Below, one piece after another: positions 4,404-47,281 of a stretch of 47,281 nt of DNA. The first letter of the stretch is position 1, and each line of letters starts with the position of its first letter. A program made the translations under genes and the position numbers. The notes beneath the pieces were generated by a model. It made no database searches, was not told the origin of the DNA, and saw only the letters and a program-made list of their open reading frames with translations. The stretch is from an uncultured Candidatus Saccharibacteria bacterium (GTDB taxonomy: Bacteria > Patescibacteriota > Minisyncoccia > Phycocordibacterales > GWA1-40-21), in the NCBI GenBank assembly GCA_964485905.1, contig CAZAJY010000002.1, forward strand, positions 1 through 47,281. The letters are read 5' to 3'.

Positions 4404-4757
4404 ATGGAAACAAATAAATACAAAAAATTATTAGAGGGTGAGAAAACAAAATTGTTAAAAGAATTAGCTACCATTGGTCATAAAAACCCATCCAATCCAA
4501 AAGATTGGGAGGCGGTACCAACTAATTTAGATTCTGATTCAGCCGATGAAAACGAAGTGGCCGATACGATTGAAGAGTTTGAAGGTAATTCTGGTATTTT
4601 AAAACAATTAGAAATCCAATTAAATAATGTTGAAAAAGCTTTGGCCGAAATCAAAGCTGGCACATATGGTAAATGTTTAGTTTGCGGCGAAGAAATTCCG
4701 ACTGCTCGTCTGGATGCTAATCCTGCTTCATTAACTTGTATTAAACATACTAAATAA
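4404..4757 (+). CDS. DksA/TraR-family C4-type zinc-finger protein
   Basis: 117 aa. An acidic coiled-coil N-terminal part is followed by GTYGKCLVCGEEIPTARLDANPASLTCIKH, the typical DksA/TraR/YteA zinc-finger tail. Confidence 0.75.
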   Translation: METNKYKKLLEGEKTKLLKELATIGHKNPSNPKDWEAVPTNLDSDSADENEVADTIEEFEGNSGILKQLEIQLNNVEKALAEIKAGTYGKCLVCGEEIPTARLDANPASLTCIKHTK

Positions 4758-4773
4758 AATTATTTTTAAAAAA

Positions 4774-4803
4774 CTTAAGGTGCCAATTTGGCACCTTAAG
4801 TTT
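4774..4803 (+). terminator. Intrinsic terminator after the dksA-like gene
   Basis: CTTAAGGTGCC-AATTT-GGCACCTTAAG is a perfect 11-bp stem followed by TTT. Confidence 0.75.
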
Positions 4804-4844
4804 GAAAAATCAAGATCACAAATTGTGACCTTGAACAGCTCACG

Positions 4845-4909
4845 CAACCGCCCCGTCTGTCAGAACAGACACCCCGCCTTAACTAAGGCGGGGATTTGGT
4901 GGAAACACT
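4845..4909 (+). repeat. Copy 1 of a two-hairpin structured element (copy 2 at 46857-46920, minus strand)
   Basis: CAACCGCCCCGTCTGTCAGAACAGACACCCCGCCTTAACTAAGGCGGGGATTTGGTGGAAACACT. Hairpins are GTCTG/CAGAC and CCCCGCCTT/AAGGCGGGG. It aligns with the reverse complement of 46857-46920. Confidence 0.7.
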
Positions 4910-4982
4910 TTGCGCTACTATATTCGAAAAATCTAAACCAAAATCTGAAATTGGTTTTCGTATGAAATAATCTATCTAAAAG

Positions 4983-4991
4983 TTATCCACA
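4983..4991 (+). promoter_or_regulatory. Perfect DnaA-box consensus 9-mer (TTATCCACA) outside the origin region
   Basis: Exact TTATCCACA at 4983-4991 in the intergenic region upstream of the 5093 gene. Confidence 0.4.
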
Positions 4992-5006
4992 GTTTGGCTT
5001 GCTTGC

Positions 5007-5023
5007 GAGAGAGAGAGAGAGAG
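5007..5023. repeat. (GA)8.5 dinucleotide microsatellite
   Basis: GAGAGAGAGAGAGAGAG at 5007-5023, flanked by TTGCTT (4999-5004) and TAGAAT (5024-5029), about 70 nt upstream of the ATG at 5093. Confidence 0.9.
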
Positions 5024-5092
5024 TAGAATATAAGTAGTCGGAAATAAGTAATCTTATTTATTTTATTAACTTTAATAACTAACTTATAAAAA

Positions 5093-6181
5093 ATGAAAAT
5101 AAAATCTCTCTTGGTTTTATCAGCCCTACTTGTTAGTTCAAATCTTGGATTAGTAAGTGCAACTTATGCAGAAGTTACACCGGGTTTTAAATTTTCTAAC
5201 GCTCCACTAGTGGAGCCGGGAATTTATGATGGTGCTTTAGGCAATAACGAAACAGTATATTATAAATTTAATGCCTCAAAAGGGCAAACAGTCAAACTTT
5301 CTGCCGTTTTTACTCAAACACAAATTGGTGTAACTGACGTTCCTTGTACATGTCTAGTTCCTTCAATAATAGGATATGATAAAAATATGTTTCCATTGGG
5401 GTCTACAGTTGGAAAAGAATACTTCAAATACGCAAACGATGACGGGCCTTATTGTATAAGAGGAAATGATACCTCTCCTCATGGTTATAGTGGTTCTTAT
5501 AAAGTTACAGAGACTGGTATAAACTATGTCGCTGTATCTACAGGATGGAGAGAAACCTGTAAAGTACTAACAAATGATGGTGATCCTTACAGTGTTGCAC
5601 AAATTGACAGAGAGACAAGAAAAGCTTTATCAAAAATATACTATGATCTTAATATTACGGTAGAAGGGACACCGACTCCAGTAGTAACAGCTCCGGTTGT
5701 GGCTCCTGTCGTCACTCCAGTAGTAGCACCAGTAATAACACGAGAACCAGTGGTAACTCCACCTAAACCAAAACCAGTAGTTACAACACCTAAACCAACT
5801 GTTCCTGAACCAAAGATTGTTGAAACAGAAGCAACTACAACTGAAGAAGCAACGACTGAAGCAGAGACATTAGTAAAAGCAAGTGCAACTGAAAATGAAA
5901 CAGTTTTAGCGAAAGTAGATAAAATTGACAACATTAGTGGTTTTCGAATCTTCTTTGTGGGTGTAAATTCCAGAGATTTAAAAGAACTAAAAGTTGAATT
6001 AACCAAAGCTCAAAATAAATTAACGAAATTAGAAAAAGCCCTCACCAGAATTGATGATGTCTTATTACAAATTGACATTGAAGACCAAATTTCCGCAACA
6101 GAAGATCTGATCGCTCAATTAGAGGTAACAATTGGTGAAAAAGATAATCGTTTCAGCTTGTTTGGTTGGTTATTCAGATAA
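5093..6181 (+). CDS. Secreted protein with a Pro/Val/Thr-rich linker and a C-terminal coiled coil
   Basis: 362 aa. It has a signal-like N-terminus (MKIKSLLVLSALLVSSNLGLVSATYA), a PVV/TPKP low-complexity stretch and a heptad-like tail. Confidence 0.6.
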   Translation: MKIKSLLVLSALLVSSNLGLVSATYAEVTPGFKFSNAPLVEPGIYDGALGNNETVYYKFNASKGQTVKLSAVFTQTQIGVTDVPCTCLVPSIIGYDKNMFPLGSTVGKEYFKYANDDGPYCIRGNDTSPHGYSGSYKVTETGINYVAVSTGWRETCKVLTNDGDPYSVAQIDRETRKALSKIYYDLNITVEGTPTPVVTAPVVAPVVTPVVAPVITREPVVTPPKPKPVVTTPKPTVPEPKIVETEATTTEEATTEAETLVKASATENETVLAKVDKIDNISGFRIFFVGVNSRDLKELKVELTKAQNKLTKLEKALTRIDDVLLQIDIEDQISATEDLIAQLEVTIGEKDNRFSLFGWLFR

Positions 6182-7211: not shown

Positions 7212-7303
7212 ATAAAATTTGACGTTGAAATATAAGCATATTTTTGTTAATTATAATAAATGCGATTACGATATCGTCATAATATGCTATACTAAACGAC
7301 ATT

Positions 7304-10152: not shown

Positions 10153-12060
10153 ATGGATCAGCTTAATCAACAGCAAAAAGAGGCGGTTTTACATACGAAT
10201 GGGCCCCTTTTAATCATTGCTGGGGCTGGGGCTGGTAAGACAAAGACCTTAACCTGCCGAATCAAACATTTGATTGAAACAGGCCTTGAACCAAAAAACA
10301 TTTTAGCCATCACCTTTACTAATAAAGCGGCTAAAGAGATGCGTGATCGAGTATTAAGAATGATAGGGGATGAAAGACCTTTTATTAGCACCTTTCACTC
10401 GCTGGGTGTCCATATCCTAAAAGAAAATAGCCGGGAGATCGGTTTGACTCGACATTTTTCCATTTTTGATAAAAACGATTCGCAAAAAGCGATTAAAGAT
10501 ATTATTAAAGAACTGGGTCTAGATCCAAAACAATATGAGCCAAATAAAATTTTAAATATTATCTCGCGAGAAAAAAGTAATTTAAAAAACGCCGAGGATT
10601 TTGTCGAGTCTATTCGCGGCGAAAATTCTACCGCCTTTCATAAGCTAATTGCCAGAATCTGGACAGAATATGAAAAAAAATTAAAAACTGAAAAGGCCCT
10701 AGACTTCGATGATTTACTTCTAAAAACTTATAAATTATTAAAAAATAAGAAAGAGATTCGAGAAAAGTATCAAAATATTTGGTCACATGTTCATATTGAT
10801 GAGTATCAAGATACCAACCAGGTACAATATATGATTGTTAAACTGTTAGTTGAGAAACATCAAAATATTTGCGTGGTGGGGGACATTGATCAAAATATTT
10901 ATAGCTGGCGTGGAGCTGATATAAAAAATATTTTAAATTTTGAAAAAGATTATCCCAAAGCCAAAGTTATTCTCTTGGAAGAAAATTATCGTTCCACCCA
11001 AAATATCTTAACCGTCGCTAATAGTATTATCAAAAAAAATATTAATCGAGTAGAAAAAAATCTTTTCACAAAAAATGGTGCGGGTGAAAAAATATCTCTC
11101 TATGCCGGCTTTAATGAAATAGAGGAGGCACAATATATCGCTAATAAAAGTAAGGAATTAATTGCCTCGGGTGTCTCGGCCCAAGAAATCGCTGTTCTTT
11201 ATCGGGCAAACTTTCAATCACGAGCCTTGGAAGATGCTTTTCTGACCAAAAGCGTGCCTTATCAAGTTTTGGGTACAAAATTTTTTGAAAGAAAGGAGGT
11301 AAAAGATATTATTTCTTTTCTTCGGGCGGGGCTTAATCCTGATAGTCTAACTGACATTAAAAGAATAATAAATGTCCCGGCCCGGGGTCTAGGCAAAGTC
11401 ACTATTCTCAAAATTTTTTCGGGACAAAAGGAAGATTTACCAGCTAGCACTAAAATAAAAGTAGATCATTTTTTTACTCTGCTGAAAAAAATTGGGGAAG
11501 TGGCTTTAGAGAAAAAACCATCGGAAGTAATTAAGTTTATTATCACTGAAACCGGCATTGAAAAAGAATTAAAGGATGGTAACGATGAAGACAAAGAAAG
11601 GTTGGAAAATATGCGCGAATTGGCGACTTTAGCAATTAAATATGATTATTTACCGTTGGGGGAAGGAGTAGAAAAATTAATTGAAGAAGCCGCTTTAGCT
11701 ACCGATCAGGATAGCTTAAACAAAAATGAAGACGCGGTAAAATTAATGACCGTCCACGCGGCCAAAGGCCTGGAATTTGATTATGTTTTTATTACTGGAT
11801 TGGAGGAAGGGCTATTTCCCCATGAACGAATGAACACCGTAAAAAATAAAGAGGGCGGGGAGGAGGAAAGACGATTATTTTATGTTGCCCTAACGCGAGC
11901 GCGCAAGAAAATCTTCCTGACTTACGCCAATGCTCGCACCATCTTCGGTTCACCACAGATAAATATTCCCTCACAATTTTTATCTGACATTGAAGAAGAA
12001 TTTTTAGAGGAGGATAAATCATTTGAATATCGGGAGAAAATAATATATCTTGATCTGTAA
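10153..12060 (+). CDS. UvrD/PcrA/Rep-family SF1 DNA helicase
   Basis: 635 aa. Motifs are Walker A AGAGAGKTKTL, motif II HIDEYQDTN, LEENYRST and VHAAKGLEFDYVFI. Confidence 0.92.
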   Translation: MDQLNQQQKEAVLHTNGPLLIIAGAGAGKTKTLTCRIKHLIETGLEPKNILAITFTNKAAKEMRDRVLRMIGDERPFISTFHSLGVHILKENSREIGLTRHFSIFDKNDSQKAIKDIIKELGLDPKQYEPNKILNIISREKSNLKNAEDFVESIRGENSTAFHKLIARIWTEYEKKLKTEKALDFDDLLLKTYKLLKNKKEIREKYQNIWSHVHIDEYQDTNQVQYMIVKLLVEKHQNICVVGDIDQNIYSWRGADIKNILNFEKDYPKAKVILLEENYRSTQNILTVANSIIKKNINRVEKNLFTKNGAGEKISLYAGFNEIEEAQYIANKSKELIASGVSAQEIAVLYRANFQSRALEDAFLTKSVPYQVLGTKFFERKEVKDIISFLRAGLNPDSLTDIKRIINVPARGLGKVTILKIFSGQKEDLPASTKIKVDHFFTLLKKIGEVALEKKPSEVIKFIITETGIEKELKDGNDEDKERLENMRELATLAIKYDYLPLGEGVEKLIEEAALATDQDSLNKNEDAVKLMTVHAAKGLEFDYVFITGLEEGLFPHERMNTVKNKEGGEEERRLFYVALTRARKKIFLTYANARTIFGSPQINIPSQFLSDIEEEFLEEDKSFEYREKIIYLDL

Positions 12061-12887
12061 TGGAAAACGTAATCGCAAAAAAATCATTAGGGCAAAATTG
12101 GTTGAAATCCAAAGTGGCTTTAAATAAGATGCTAGAAGCGGGAGACGTAACCGCCGATGATATTGTCTTGGAAGTGGGGCCCGGGCAGGGAATTTTGACG
12201 GAAAAACTGCTAGAAAAAGCCAAAAAAGTAATCGCCGTAGAAAAAGATGATCGTCTAATTTCTTTTTTACAAGAAAAATTTACTAATGAAATTGATTCTG
12301 GCAATCTTATTCTTATTCATTCTGATATTCTAAATTTTGATACACAATACTGGATACCCGATACTCAATACAAACTCATTGCTAATATTCCTTATTATAT
12401 TACTGGACAATTTTTACGAAAATTTTTGGCTACACCGAGTTCTCTAAACTCGGTCGCCCGATCCACTAAGAGTGGGTTTAGGGAAACAAAAAATCAGCCA
12501 AGTAAAATCGTCATAATGGTGCAAAAAGAAATCGCCCAGAGAATTGTGGCTAACGATAAAAAAGAAAGTATTTTATCTATCAGTGTTAAAGCTTATGGCC
12601 AGCCTAAAATGATTATGAAAGTGGGCAAGGAAAATTTTTCTCCAGCTCCCAAAGTAGATTCAGCGATTTTATTAATTAATAATATTTCTAAAGATTTTTT
12701 CACTCAAAATAAAATATCGGAAGAAAAATTCTTCGCCATTCTCCACGCCGGCTTTGCTCACAAAAGAAAAATATTATCTTCCAATCTCAAGGGCTTTGTT
12801 TCACCCGAAAAACTCGCCAGTTTAACACCCAAAATCAGGGCTGAGGATTTAAATTTGGAGGGATGGGGAAGATTAGGAAATAAATAA
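12060..12887 (+). CDS. rsmA: 16S rRNA (adenine1518/1519-N6)-dimethyltransferase
   Basis: 275 aa. Motifs are KSLGQNWL, VLEVGPGQGILTEKL, ANIPYYIT, MVQKEIAQRI and SPAPKVDSAI. Its start overlaps the helicase stop (TAATG). Confidence 0.9.
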   Translation: MENVIAKKSLGQNWLKSKVALNKMLEAGDVTADDIVLEVGPGQGILTEKLLEKAKKVIAVEKDDRLISFLQEKFTNEIDSGNLILIHSDILNFDTQYWIPDTQYKLIANIPYYITGQFLRKFLATPSSLNSVARSTKSGFRETKNQPSKIVIMVQKEIAQRIVANDKKESILSISVKAYGQPKMIMKVGKENFSPAPKVDSAILLINNISKDFFTQNKISEEKFFAILHAGFAHKRKILSSNLKGFVSPEKLASLTPKIRAEDLNLEGWGRLGNK

Positions 12888-18170: not shown

Positions 18171-18210
18171 AAACGTAATCGTAATTGCATTTGTTATAAA
18201 TAACTAAAAT

Positions 18211-19344
18211 ATGCTTATATTCCAACGCGAAAACTATGTACCAATTTTGCAAAAATTGTTTAAAAACAAAATTATTATTATTTACGGACCAAGGCAAGCG
18301 GGAAAGACAACTTTGTGTAAAGAAATTCAAAAGAAATATCCAGATAGTAAAATATTAACCTGCGACGACCCAAATATAGCCAATAATTTAGAGCCAAAAT
18401 CAGTGGAAGAAATCCTAAAGTATTTTGACAATAAAAAACTAATTATCATTGATGAGGCCCAAAGAGTAGAAAATATTGGCTTAACATTAAAATTACTAGT
18501 TGACGCCCACCCGGAAATTCAAATCATCGCCACGGGGTCATCATCTTTTGACTTAGCCAATAAAGTAAACGAGCCATTGACGGGAAGAAACTGGAAATTT
18601 TATCTTTTCCCTTTATCACTCAAAGAGTTATCTGTAACTTACGGTGCAGAACTTAAAAGCAAGTTAGAGGATCTACTAATTTTTGGTTCGTATCCAGAAA
18701 TTGTATCCGCACAAGAAAACAAGAAAGAAATATTGAAAAATCTAGCCAGTGATTATTTATACAAAGATTTGCTTTCTTATGAAGGGATAAGAAAACCAAG
18801 AACTTTATTTGATTTGCTCAGATTGCTAGCCCTAAATGTCGGAAATGAAGTTTCCTATAGTAAAATTGCCAGTGATCTATCAATCAGTAGAGAGACGGTT
18901 CGCTCATATATTGGAATATTAGAACAGGCCTTTATTATTTTTACCCTGCCGCCACTCCATAAACATAAAAGTAAAGAAATAAGTCGACTTAATAAAATAT
19001 ATTTTTACGACAACGGTATCAGAAACGCCCTTTTAGATAGTTTTAAACAACTTGAAAAAAGAAATGACGTTGGGGCTTTGTTTGAGAATTTCTTTATGTC
19101 AGAAAAAATGAAACAACATTATTACAGAAATTCTGAAAATAAGATGTACTTTTGGCGTACCAAACAAGGCCAAGAGATAGATTTAGTAGAGGAATATCGG
19201 GGTGGAGAAGAATATAAAATATTTGAATGTAAGTGGCAAGATAGGGCATCAAAAATTCCACCCATGTGGCAAAAAGAATACCGAAACTTTGAAATGAAGT
19301 TAGTTCACAAAGATAATTTACTAGATTATTTTCTAAGCCTGTAA
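18211..19344 (+). CDS. AAA+ ATPase of the COG1373 type (AAA_14 plus DUF4143 architecture)
   Basis: 377 aa. It has Walker A GPRQAGKTTL, Walker B LIIIDEAQ and a C-terminal region with an acidic/aromatic nuclease-like tail (EIDLVEE...FECKW). Confidence 0.7.
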   Translation: MLIFQRENYVPILQKLFKNKIIIIYGPRQAGKTTLCKEIQKKYPDSKILTCDDPNIANNLEPKSVEEILKYFDNKKLIIIDEAQRVENIGLTLKLLVDAHPEIQIIATGSSSFDLANKVNEPLTGRNWKFYLFPLSLKELSVTYGAELKSKLEDLLIFGSYPEIVSAQENKKEILKNLASDYLYKDLLSYEGIRKPRTLFDLLRLLALNVGNEVSYSKIASDLSISRETVRSYIGILEQAFIIFTLPPLHKHKSKEISRLNKIYFYDNGIRNALLDSFKQLEKRNDVGALFENFFMSEKMKQHYYRNSENKMYFWRTKQGQEIDLVEEYRGGEEYKIFECKWQDRASKIPPMWQKEYRNFEMKLVHKDNLLDYFLSL

Positions 19345-33188: not shown

Positions 33189-33276
33189 CCAGAACAAGGT
33201 TTAACCTTGGTCTGGGTATATTTTCTTCTAAACAACAAATGGTAGACGGTCGTGTGTCATTTATTGTTTTGAAATA
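33189..33276 (+). repeat. Palindrome S2 plus copy A of the 74-nt direct repeat
   Basis: CCAGAACAAGG-TTTAA-CCTTGGTCTGG (33189-33215; the 11-nt arms match 10/11). 33203-33276 matches 34707-34780 at all but one position (T/C). Confidence 0.85.
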
Positions 33277-34692: not shown

Positions 34693-34780
34693 CTAGACTA
34701 AGGTTAAACCTTGGTCTGGGTACATTTTCTTCTAAACAACAAATGGTAGACGGTCGTGTGTCATTTATTGTTTTGAAATA
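34693..34780 (+). repeat. Palindrome S4 plus copy B of the 74-nt direct repeat
   Basis: CTAGACTAAGG-TTAAA-CCTTGGTCTGG (34693-34719). 34707-34780 is copy B of the repeat seen at 33203-33276. Confidence 0.85.
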
Positions 34781-46266: not shown

Positions 46267-46734
46267 CTATCTGTTGGTGGCGAAATAGGTGAGTCCACAA
46301 GCGATTGCGTCATATTCATCATCATATTTCAACGGCTCAACGGCGATGAGCCGTTCAACCATTTGAATTACTTGGTTTTTATCACTTTTACCATAACCAG
46401 TTACAGCTACTTTGATTTGTAAGGGGGTGAATTCAGTTATTTTTAATCCCGCCTTAGCCGCTTCATATAAAATTACACCTCGGGCTTCGCTCACCTTCAT
46501 TGCCGTCTTGGCATTGGTTTTGAAAAATAAATTTTCAATTGCCAAGGCTTCGGGCTTGTATTTTTTAATTACTTTTCCTATTTCTTCTCCAATTGACCTT
46601 AATCGGTCTTCATGTTTTTCTTTAGCTGAAGTTTTAAAACATTCAGAAAAAACCAGAGTTTCCCTTCTAGTTCCTTTTTCTAATATGGCAATTCCTAGTC
46701 TTTCGTAACCGGGATCTATAGCGATGATTTTCAT
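46267..46734 (-). CDS. ruvC: Crossover junction endodeoxyribonuclease RuvC
   Basis: 155 aa. Motifs are MKIIAIDPGYERLGIA (first catalytic Asp), AIENLFF and DEYDAIACGL. It is downstream of yebC as in many bacteria. Confidence 0.9.
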   Translation of the reverse strand: MKIIAIDPGYERLGIAILEKGTRRETLVFSECFKTSAKEKHEDRLRSIGEEIGKVIKKYKPEALAIENLFFKTNAKTAMKVSEARGVILYEAAKAGLKITEFTPLQIKVAVTGYGKSDKNQVIQMVERLIAVEPLKYDDEYDAIACGLTYFATNR

Positions 46735-46856
46735 AATATGATTATAACAAAATCTGGTTAATTATTCCTTTTTCTTTTTCAACCTCCCTGCTTCGCGGAC
46801 TCAGCATCCCTCCTTGACTAAGGAGGGAGTTCAGAAACAAAATATCTAAATGTCTT

Positions 46857-46920
46857 AGTGTTTTCGGCTTCCCCCTCCTCAGTCGAGGAGGGATGTCTAT
46901 TCTGATAGACGGGGCGGTTG
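46857..46920 (-). repeat. Copy 2 of the two-hairpin structured element (copy 1 at 4845-4909)
   Basis: The reverse complement reads CAACCGCCCCGTCTATCAGAATAGACATCCCTCCTCGACTGAGGAGGGGGAAGCCGAAAACACT. The element starts 3 nt after the yebC stop. Confidence 0.7.
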
Positions 46921-46922
46921 TC

Positions 46923-47281
46923 TTACTCCGCATTAGTCCAAACTTCCTGCACCTCATCATTATCTTCCAATTCATCAATTAATTTTTCTAATTTAGTCCC
47001 GTCTTCGTCCGAGATTGGTACCGTCATATTGGGCACATAATCTTCTTCGGCTGATTTAGTAAAAGCCCAAGAAGCACTGCCGGGCGCAGCAAGAGCCGAA
47101 CCGTTTCCTGTTAAAATATGTTTCACTTCGCCGGCCGCTTTGTTTCGGTTATCTGTTAAGGCTTCAATTATTATAGCGACACCACCCGGACCATAGGCTT
47201 CATAGAGAATTGATTCCATTTGAGTCGCATTATCATTTTTCTTTAATGCGCGTTCAATATTTTCATTTGGCACATTATATT
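46923..47281 (-). CDS. yebC: YebC/PmpR-family protein, C-terminal part (5' end outside window)
   Basis: ...NENIERALKK...YEAYGPGGVAIIIEALTDNRNKAAGEVKHIL is the conserved YebC core. The reading frame stays open to the window edge. Confidence 0.88.
   Translation of the reverse strand, partial: YNVPNENIERALKKNDNATQMESILYEAYGPGGVAIIIEALTDNRNKAAGEVKHILTGNGSALAAPGSASWAFTKSAEEDYVPNMTVPISDEDGTKLEKLIDELEDNDEVQEVWTNAE

Follow-up and report, generated by a model that had tools for sequence, protein, structure and literature searches.

A hairpin-expanded repeat of candidate phyla radiation bacteria as a probable counterpart of the BoxC/PIT/TM_ECO intrastrand-triplex repeats, and its association with DUF559/YcjD nuclease genes

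The DNA analyzed here, hereafter the window, comprises positions 1 to 47,281 of contig CAZAJY010000002.1 (assembly GCA_964485905.1) of an uncultured Candidatus Saccharibacteria bacterium, a member of the candidate phyla radiation (CPR), and it carries three copies of a structured repeat composed of a 10-nt head, two covarying hairpins (A and B) and a tail. An earlier note on this DNA had taken two of the copies as evidence for an RNA or single-stranded DNA fold; the single-stranded DNA option fits what we find, the RNA reading is not supported, and we reject an RNA family in favor of a hairpin-expanded CPR variant of the known intrastrand-triplex repeats. The element is probably a DNA-level selfish repeat of the intrastrand-triplex type, resembling repetitive extragenic palindromic (REP) sequences and MITEs (miniature transposable elements with inverted repeats), and would be the CPR counterpart of BoxC/PIT/TM_ECO. 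The evidence for this is a mirror code that relates the head to hairpin B across the repeat family, a strand asymmetry in the mismatches of hairpin A, differences in presence and absence among genomes, and an association of the repeats with genes for DUF559/YcjD nucleases.

A repeat family with covarying hairpins and a head-arm mirror code

Both copies described before, at 4845-4909 on the + strand and as the reverse complement of 46857-46920, are present, their common 14-mer CAACCGCCCCGTCT occurs exactly twice in the window, and a repeat search of the window recovers them as a 49-nt inverted pair that is 84% complementary. The count of two was incomplete, as a third copy lies at 46780-46839, inverted with respect to copy 2, with the CAACC heads of the two facing outward and 44 nt separating their B hairpins, so that the 188-nt spacer between yebC and ruvC contains a heads-out doublet. 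The two halves of this doublet have a mutual complementarity of a mere 73%, whereas each local hairpin is perfect. With up to three mismatches to CAACCGCCCCGTCT allowed, the window has 4 matches against 0.98 expected, a number reached in 0 of 100 shuffles, and all three copies match the pattern CAACCNCCC-N19-CCCNCCTNNACTNAGGNGGG and score 76.8 bits (copy 1), 74.1 bits (copy 2) and 63.4 bits (copy 3) with the family covariance model; neither mismatch-tolerant searches of the 47 kb nor that model, run with filters off, finds any beyond these three. Copies 1 and 2, as had been observed, point in the sense direction of the co-directional genes on either side, and copy 3 is antisense. The AAACACT tail that had been listed as conserved in copies 1 and 2 is not a feature of the family. 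Copy 1 reaches ~4932, about 40 nt further, since it continues into a type-A tail common to 14 other singlets, with the order GATTTGGTGGAAG, small hairpin, CTACTnTATTCGGA; the small hairpin (hairpin C) of copy 1 is degenerate and is unstable on both strands with DNA parameters.

A search pattern of 23 bases, for which ~0.1 chance matches are expected in 596 Gb, matched 72 loci, and a covariance-model scan of the kind proposed in the earlier note, carried out with a model (R1) built from 78 copies, gave 152 hits in those loci. The hosts are mostly CPR genomes, with some Gammaproteobacteria and one cyanobacterium: strict copies number 15 in the Saccharibacteria metagenome-assembled genome (MAG) CAZSCE, 12 in Loclat_bin-10281, nine each in the Saccharibacteria MAG CAZIYU and the gammaproteobacterium CCP3-SC1AL1, and seven in Taylorbacteria JAPLZG, and the other groups matched are Paceibacteria, Woesebacteria, Competibacteraceae and one Scytonema. 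The 23-base pattern is absent from viral contigs. Most copies are outside genes, with 118 of 146 nonoverlapping hits falling outside open reading frames (ORFs) of at least 100 aa, and the clusters comprise 68 singlets, 29 heads-out doublets and 4 tails-out doublets, with class-1 halves paired with class-2 halves by sequence in the window and L018 and by subtype in L004, L065 and L067. The termini are conserved as (A)CACAACC...GGTTGTG(T). On the strand on which the copies are written here (the written strand), the element consists of a flank (A)ACA, a head CAACC[G/A]CCCC, hairpin A with 5-6 bp and the loop CAGA in several length classes, a spacer A, hairpin B with the arm CCCC[G/T]CCT[T/C], the loop [A/G]ACT and the complementary arm, and a variable tail.

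The exchanges by which the hairpins of copies 1 and 2 differ are as they had been described, namely GTCTG/CAGAC against GTCTA/TAGAC in hairpin A, and G-C to T-A and T-A to C-G in hairpin B. When either strand is folded as DNA, the minimum-free-energy structure consists of these two hairpins, with z-scores of -4.7 to -7.3. Among 150 aligned copies, 90.8% of the cells are paired, against 75.2% in shuffles, and changes on both sides of a pair are found in 349 cells against 115 in shuffles, the observed number being reached in 0 of 500; when the partner columns are slid, pairing falls to 47-66%. The selection on a fold that had been proposed from two copies is therefore borne out by pairing and covariation above the shuffle and slide controls, with many more copies existing and their divergence being compensatory. 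A Watson-Crick stem closing the element from head to tail was considered and rejected, its complementarity being weak and inconsistent by eye and the minimum-free-energy structure pairing 5 nt at low ensemble frequency.

The first 10 nt, the head, covary with hairpin B as well, and the head mirrors the 5' arm of B in parallel register. Mutual information links head column 15 to the second pair of hairpin B (C with C-G 107 times, T with T-A 19 times) and head column 12 to its central pair. When the head is set in parallel against the purine (3') arm, the correspondences can be stated as a triplet rule, with C opposite G and either A or T opposite A, and once all copies are parsed into 65 distinct head/arm haplotypes this rule is obeyed at 503 of 579 positions (86.9%). 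Permuted heads obey it at 60.6 ± 1.7%, or at 78.7 ± 0.8% (maximum 81.7%) when the linker is re-optimized, register-shifted heads at 35-62% and the reversed head at 53%. The head base opposite an arm A is A in 116 cases, T in 42, G in 17 and C in 8. Head and arm change jointly in independent divergent lineages: in L086 the heads CACCTCCCC (+) and CACCCCTCC (-) accompany the purine arms GAGGAGGGG and GAGGGGAGG, in L084 the heads ACCCCCTC (+) and ACCCCTCT (-) accompany AGGGGGAG and AGGGGAGA, and in L079 the heads CCACCCT (+) and CCACCTC (-) accompany GGAGGGA and GGAGGAG. Within the window the rule holds at 8 of 9 positions between the copy 1 head AACCGCCCC and the 3' arm AAGGCGGGG and at 9 of 9 between the copy 3 head AACCTCCCT and the arm AAGGAGGGA, both within the limit of one mismatch over at least 8 positions, and a generic class II triplex finder gives just two hits in the 47 kb, both of them copies of the repeat, at 4846-4893 (-) and 46781-46829 (-).

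Mirror symmetry is a triple-helix signature, and neither a protein dimer nor Watson-Crick pairing yields such symmetry. Read on the complementary strand, the pyrimidine arm comes first, followed by a loop, the purine arm, the linker and a G/T-rich strand, GGGG[C/T]GGTT, which is the complement of the head; this segment is antiparallel to the purine arm, and the head-arm rule translates into G·G-C, T·A-T and A·A-T, the canonical reverse-Hoogsteen triplets of the purine motif, which PMC4666352 lists as class II. The code suggests that the complementary strand can fold as a class II purine-motif intrastrand DNA triplex, which may also form in vivo, and hairpin A is predicted to be an expanded second loop of that triplex; minimal relatives (L086, L023:3913, L044:3095 and L020:4409) have a second loop of 3-4 nt. 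Other structured forms fit less well: a G-quadruplex or i-motif fails to account for the covarying A positions, and an integron attC site is ruled out, the element lying between housekeeping genes without arrays and without an integrase. A GGTGGAA in the type-A tail, picked out by eye as a candidate third strand on the written strand, had no finder match at 8 nt or more.

The earlier note could not assign the element to a known RNA family, and rightly so, yet its architecture is that of a known class of DNA repeat. BoxC, PIT and TM_ECO are names for one repeat with the pattern 5'-CCCTCNCCC N3-6 GGGNGAGGG N3 GGGNGAGGG, which forms a class II purine-motif intrastrand triplex in vitro by circular dichroism and nuclear magnetic resonance, is present in E. 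coli MG1655 as 23 intergenic copies in both orientations, with five inverted pairs that always combine type A with type B, and reaches 3,610 copies in 262 proteobacterial genomes, while G/C-rich intrastrand-triplex motifs are very frequent in cyanobacteria too (PMC4666352). The repeat is tied to local genome instability, its loci being rearrangement hotspots that stall polymerase in vitro; its function is not known, and no link to a mobile element was found by the authors (PMC4666352). Earlier work on BoxC/PIT includes that of Hoyne and Maher (2000, 2002), as cited in PMC4666352. Salmonella reportedly has no TM_ECO.

The window element has in common with BoxC/PIT/TM_ECO the succession of pyrimidine arm, 3-6-nt loop, purine arm, second loop and G-rich third strand, stems of 9-10 nt, the G·G-C, T·A-T and A·A-T triplet code, a mostly intergenic location in both orientations as singlets and as inverted pairs of two subtypes, many copies per genome in numbers that differ among relatives, and, as described below, an adjoining DUF559/YcjD gene. 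It differs in its stems, which in the window are CCCCGCCTT/AAGGCGGGG (or TCCCTCCTT) rather than CCCTCNCCC/GGGNGAGGG, so that the TM_ECO pattern is not matched, in a G/T-rich third strand that ends in TT(G), and in its hosts, which are CPR bacteria with AT-rich genomes. The second loop is 3 nt in TM_ECO (1-6 nt in the ITxF search) and a 15-19-nt covarying hairpin in most CPR copies, and some CPR copies are in frame inside genes, whereas TM_ECO was reported as always intergenic. BoxC/PIT/TM_ECO has been known since the 1990s, with a triplex in vitro and unstable loci, and no function, origin or partner protein had been assigned to it. The triplet-code architecture is now found in CPR bacteria too, where natural covariation amounts to an evolutionary "mutagenesis" of the triple helix and where, it appears, the second loop can be an entire hairpin.

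Probable folding strand, placement and variable occupancy of the copies

As written, hairpin A has 124 pyrimidine-pyrimidine mismatches and 5 purine-purine ones, and the other strand shows them as tandem G·A/A·G. Tandem G·A is a stable mismatch motif, and the asymmetry points to the complementary strand as the strand that folds. The alternative for the written strand would be a pyrimidine-motif triplex, needing protonated runs of C and a T opposite every A, and the predominance of A over T in the head opposite arm A is compatible with no motif other than the purine one on the complementary strand. RNA is reported to form no triplexes of the purine motif (PMC4666352), and single-stranded DNA is favored for that reason. 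The Rfam comparison that had been suggested yielded nothing meaningful in an E-value scan of 4700-5100, and the whole window has no Rfam match at the gathering threshold; a scan of the window for tRNA and tmRNA found none. An intrinsic terminator is not seen in the window copies, where hairpin B lacks a T-run and is followed by ATTTGG, GGAAGC or AGTTCA. Of 24 singlets that lie between co-directional genes, 18 have the written strand in antisense and 6 have it in sense, which makes the folding strand the coding strand in 18 of 24; from this we infer that it would be the lagging-strand template with co-oriented genes.

Occupancy of the same site differs among genomes. In L078 the ruvC-yebC spacer is empty, at 27 nt; L053 and L022 each have a singlet there, and the window and L055 have doublets that differ in subtype, the compared flanks being just 75-80% identical. 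The L004 doublet is missing at the overlapping-gene junction of L018 and L037; a possible GAAGAAATA duplication in L004 is unconvincing, with 27 extra nt and ~80% flank identity. Copies are also found in frame, with Pfam domains intact on either side, in uppP/BacA, ftsK, a murD-like ligase gene, rsmA, rsmE and a class-V aminotransferase gene (Table 1). Copies in uppP occur in three genomes, one of which holds an entire doublet, and the rsmA of the window (12060-12887) has no insert.

Several observations concern the immediate surroundings of copies. An extended -10 box, TGTTATAAT, occupies 46741-46749 (-) and leaves 6 nt to the ruvC ATG at 46734, a spacing that suggests a leaderless ruvC mRNA. 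In L053, L055 and L047 the head end (...GGGGCGGTTG) directly abuts TGTTATAAT or TGTTATACT, with an ATG 6-8 nt on, and this could reflect either a target preference or an outward-facing promoter. The Taylorbacteria JAPLZG copies (L012, L027, L035 and L052) have 30 nt more in common upstream, TGAGGAGTCCATTACTnATTTCTTTTCACA, and in L012 an inverted GACTCCTC lies downstream of the copy, from which the triplex unit in this genome appears to sit within a larger composite repeat.

DUF559/YcjD genes at the repeats

In four loci (L011, L020, L054 and L022) copies flank a ~122-aa ORF of the DUF559 family (PF04480, E = 1e-34), the product of which matches PDB 3HRL, an endonuclease-like protein. All 15 independent DUF559 loci have triplex motifs, identified by the covariance model or the triplex finder, at or beside the gene, which places a DUF559/YcjD gene among repeats at every such locus examined, from Saccharibacteria to E. 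coli K-12. The DUF559 proteins of these loci, whose hosts are CPR bacteria, Enterobacter, Klebsiella and E. coli, share 42-100% identity with the CPR reference protein of L020. In P0063 (L073 2001-2369) the gene and its flanking repeats lie on the opposite strand between rpsS and rplB of the S10 operon, an arrangement that recurs in several metagenome samples; in P0019, from a Saccharibacteria MAG, the gene lies between yebC and ruvB with repeat hits at the gene, and P0030, P0114, P0117 and P0120 have repeat hits directly at it.

The E. coli protein YcjD is 42% identical to the CPR protein over its full length, and the match takes in the C-terminal residues, SPSP or STTP, that are encoded by the repeat. 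In K-12 (L099, NC_000913.3 1351204-1351760) a degenerate TM_ECO-like motif extends over the stop codon of ycjD, with TM_ECO no. 9 (Table 1 of PMC4666352), which matches the TM_ECO pattern, 168 nt downstream. YcjD homologs in Enterobacter, in Klebsiella and in a further genome (L108) are at different loci, with TM motifs at the 3' end or on both sides. YcjD is a predicted Vsr-like PD-(D/E)XK nuclease (PMC1189080). No paper in the literature searched links ycjD or DUF559 to BoxC, and the association, which is what the present data establish of this link, may be new; it turns the BoxC puzzle into a testable enzyme-substrate hypothesis with E. coli ycjD and TM_ECO no. 9. DUF559 homologs are numerous and often on contigs of <2 kb, and assemblies often break a few bases from the DUF559 3' end (L102-L104 and many other homologs), as would be expected of a multi-copy repeat at the gene ends; the repeat family accounts for many assembly breaks and in-frame insertions in CPR genomes.

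In E. coli phylogroups A, B1 and C the fabI-sapF site holds ycjD, and in B2, D, E, F and G it holds the eef operon instead (PMC12817139). Altogether 3,378 of 5,426 complete E. coli genomes carry the gene. Published TM_ECO counts, set out by the phylogroups to which we take the named strains to belong, are 13-30 copies in A, B1 and C strains, which have ycjD, against 1-2 in B2 strains, 11 in O157, 12-15 in D strains and 6 in IAI39, all of which lack it (ST69, a D lineage with ycjD, is not counted).

Proposed mechanism, competing explanations and features of the window

The proposed sequence of events begins with transiently single-stranded DNA of the complementary strand, in which hairpin B (CCCCGCCTT, a 4-nt loop and AAGGCGGGG) and the hairpin A linker would be followed by GGGGCGGTT, and the latter would turn back into the major groove, antiparallel to the purine arm, and form the reverse-Hoogsteen triplets named above. 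Copies would then spread or persist in three forms, as singlets such as copy 1, as heads-out doublets of unlike halves such as copies 3 and 2, and as units at or beside the ~120-aa DUF559/YcjD nuclease gene with its Vsr-like PD-(D/E)XK fold. The nuclease may recognize the folded ends and service repeats in trans, like the REP-associated tyrosine transposase (RAYT) for REPINs, and recognition of the triplex would drive spread or homogenization, with the three window copies as non-autonomous members. That DUF559/YcjD nucleases are the cognate enzymes of intrastrand-triplex repeats, and that the two form a so far unrecognized, phylum-spanning class of selfish DNA, reaching from CPR bacteria to Enterobacteriaceae and recognized through a DNA triple helix instead of a simple hairpin or duplex site, is a tentative proposal to which we give somewhat less than even weight. 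If true, it would account for the nature and maintenance of BoxC/PIT in E. coli, a question open since the 1990s.

Partial parallels exist among known elements. REP/REPIN-RAYT systems are likewise short structured repeats that occur as singlets and inverted doublets, dozens per genome, with a small enzyme gene between repeats and one folded DNA strand thought to be the recognized form; the window element has no GTAG or CGTC tag, its head being CAACC, it has a third strand and a triplet code, and the flanked protein is a PD-(D/E)XK (Vsr-like) hydrolase rather than RAYT (Y1 HUH). The ends of IS200/IS605 elements, which are subterminal single-stranded DNA hairpins with cleavage sites read by base pairs and triples between the DNA and a guide sequence, are similar in presenting a folded single strand as substrate, in a flanking segment that covaries with the hairpin region via non-Watson-Crick contacts, and in a biased orientation with the folding strand usually on the coding strand (18:6 here), but they differ in enzyme class and in having a 4-nt guide where the present element has a 9-nt triple helix and inverted doublets. 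Rickettsia palindromic elements, which Ogata et al. (2000) reportedly described as selfish DNA in frame in protein-coding genes, are comparable in their in-frame copies, and they are not known to have a triplex code or a nuclease partner.

A number of points weigh against the selfish-triplex reading. With the triplet rule obeyed at just 6 of 8 positions, copy 2 is the poorest fit among the window copies, copy 1 has the less common orientation, and the second loop of the window copies is a 15-19-nt hairpin, not 3 nt. In the commonest variant the central triplet is C·C-G or mismatched, and hairpin B has 16 cells that are G·T as written and A·C on the proposed folding strand. Triplex formation by the CPR sequence is read from its code by analogy with TM_ECO, to which the in vitro demonstration belongs, and Holder et al. 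(2015) saw no in vivo triplex protection by dimethyl sulfate (PMC4666352). No target-site duplication is seen at the L020, L054, L011 or ruvC-yebC sites (75-80% flank identity), and there is no insertion polymorphism among same-species contigs with exact DksA-like and RuvC proteins, which have identical spacers. On the side of the nuclease, there is no DUF559 gene in the 47-kb window, just 4 of the 105 clusters of repeats in the fetched loci have one next to them, and the correlation of ycjD with TM_ECO counts is confounded by phylogeny, E. coli lineages without ycjD retaining 6-15 copies. A PD-(D/E)XK hydrolase alone cannot carry out strand transfer, and there is no complete transposition chemistry, for which reason a nick-and-repair route (homing or gene conversion), itself speculation, is more plausible than cut-and-paste.

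The competing explanations each take up part of this evidence. A structured RNA made from the written strand, acting as a cis-regulatory leader, a processing or stability element or a small RNA, would explain the strong covariation in two hairpins, the 16 cells of hairpin B that are G·U-compatible on that strand and the sense orientation of copies 1 and 2, and REP-like hairpins do stabilize upstream mRNA in E. coli. It is nevertheless quite improbable, as copy 3 and 18 of the 24 singlets are antisense, some copies are translated inside ORFs, hairpin A would carry 124 pyrimidine-pyrimidine mismatches, there is no T-run for a terminator and no Rfam match at either threshold, and the head-arm code is mostly A opposite A, which no RNA triple-helix motif fits, purine-motif RNA triplexes being reported not to form (PMC4666352). 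Chance likeness, or a simple decaying duplication of the two copies first seen, is suggested by there being just three copies within the window and is already refuted by the 152 model hits, the 72 loci against ~0.1 expected and the covariation controls, so that next to no weight is left to it.

Two further alternatives accept a DNA element. The hairpins and the mirror could be by-products in an ordinary MITE of a transposase-encoding insertion sequence with DUF559 as cargo or neighbor, and the excess of heads-out over tails-out doublets (29:4), the conserved termini, presence or absence at orthologous sites and the many DUF559 contigs that break at the repeat agree with this; it is very unlikely, given that no transposase gene lies between or beside copies in the fetched loci, where DUF559 is the only enclosed ORF, that no target-site duplication was found between flanks 75-80% identical, that mirror rather than dyad symmetry is unreadable by a protein in the same way at both sites, and that the doublet halves are 73% complementary while the local hairpins are perfect. 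Alternatively the host may use the element as DNA, for punctuation of replication or transcription, as a supercoil-sensitive H-DNA switch or as a portable promoter, with DUF559 as a structure-specific host nuclease that resolves the damage these structures produce and has no part in their spread. Copies in the ruvC-yebC spacer of four genomes with flanks 75-80% identical, the head end abutting TGTTATAAT and then an ATG in L053, L055 and L047, and the rearrangement hotspots and in vitro polymerase stalling at TM_ECO loci (PMC4666352) are in its favor, but empty, singlet and doublet forms at one locus resemble turnover rather than conservation, and the usefulness of in-frame copies in essential genes is hard to see. 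Since PIT/TM_ECO is moreover without promoter, terminator or regulatory effect in the work of the groups of Maher and Hartig, as summarized in PMC4666352, such a host function seems unlikely to us.

Table 1. Positions of the repeat parts and neighboring genes in the window, and of in-frame copies in other loci
Feature	Position	Strand	Remark
DksA/TraR zinc-finger gene	4404-4757	+	upstream of copy 1
Copy 1 head, CAACCGCCCC	4845-4854	+	- strand complement GGGGCGGTTG is the proposed reverse-Hoogsteen third strand
Copy 1 hairpin A, GTCTGT-CAGA-ACAGAC	4855-4870	+	putative triplex linker (second loop); pairs covary
Copy 1 hairpin B, CCCCGCCTT-AACT-AAGGCGGGG	4872-4893	+	pyrimidine-arm/purine-arm duplex of the proposed triplex
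Copy 1 type-A tail, GATTTGGTGGAAACACTTTGCGCTACTATATTCGAAAAA	4894-4932	+	common to 14 other singlets
ruvC	46267-46734	-	downstream of the doublet
Copy 3 head, CAACCTCCCT	46780-46789	+	repeat search and covariance model
Copy 3 hairpin A, class 2, GCTTCG-CGGA-CTCAGC	46790-46805	+	TC/TC internal loop; tandem G·A on the other strand
Copy 3 hairpin B, TCCCTCCTT-GACT-AAGGAGGGA	46807-46828	+	covariance model, triplex finder and DNA folding
Doublet inner spacer	46829-46872		tails of copies 3 and 2
Copy 2 hairpin B, CCCTCCTC-GACT-GAGGAGGG	46873-46892	-	covariance model and DNA folding
Copy 2 hairpin A, GTCTAT-CAGA-ATAGAC	46895-46910	-	covariance model and DNA folding
Copy 2 head, CAACCGCCCC	46911-46920	-	begins 3 nt past the yebC stop codon
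yebC, 3' part	46923-47273	-	upstream of the doublet
In-frame copy	L020:4409-4462		
In-frame copy	L044:3095-3148		
In-frame copy	L031:1570-1712		
In-frame copy	L036:3302-3367		
In-frame copy	L067:3407-3470		
In-frame copy	L033:6125-6190		
In-frame copy	L003:1684-1749		
In-frame copy	L066:2802-2865		

Near copy 1, a terminator-like hairpin, CTTAAGGTGCC...GGCACCTTAAG followed by TTT, lies at 4774-4803 on the 3' side of the dksA-like gene, a perfect palindrome, TCACAAATTGTGA, is found at 4816-4828 immediately upstream of the copy, and a (GA)8 homopurine tract at 5007-5023 precedes the gene after it. Elsewhere in the window are repeats of other kinds. A direct repeat of 86 nt (33191-33276 and 34695-34780, 95% identical) and a four-copy family of the 22-nt hairpin AACAAGGTTTAACCTTGGTCTG (32248, 33193, 34091 and 34697), both unrelated to the triplex element, are located between short + strand ORFs, and an AT-rich intergenic inverted repeat of 60 nt, 85% complementary, has its arms at 7218-7277 and 18173-18232, 10.9 kb apart.

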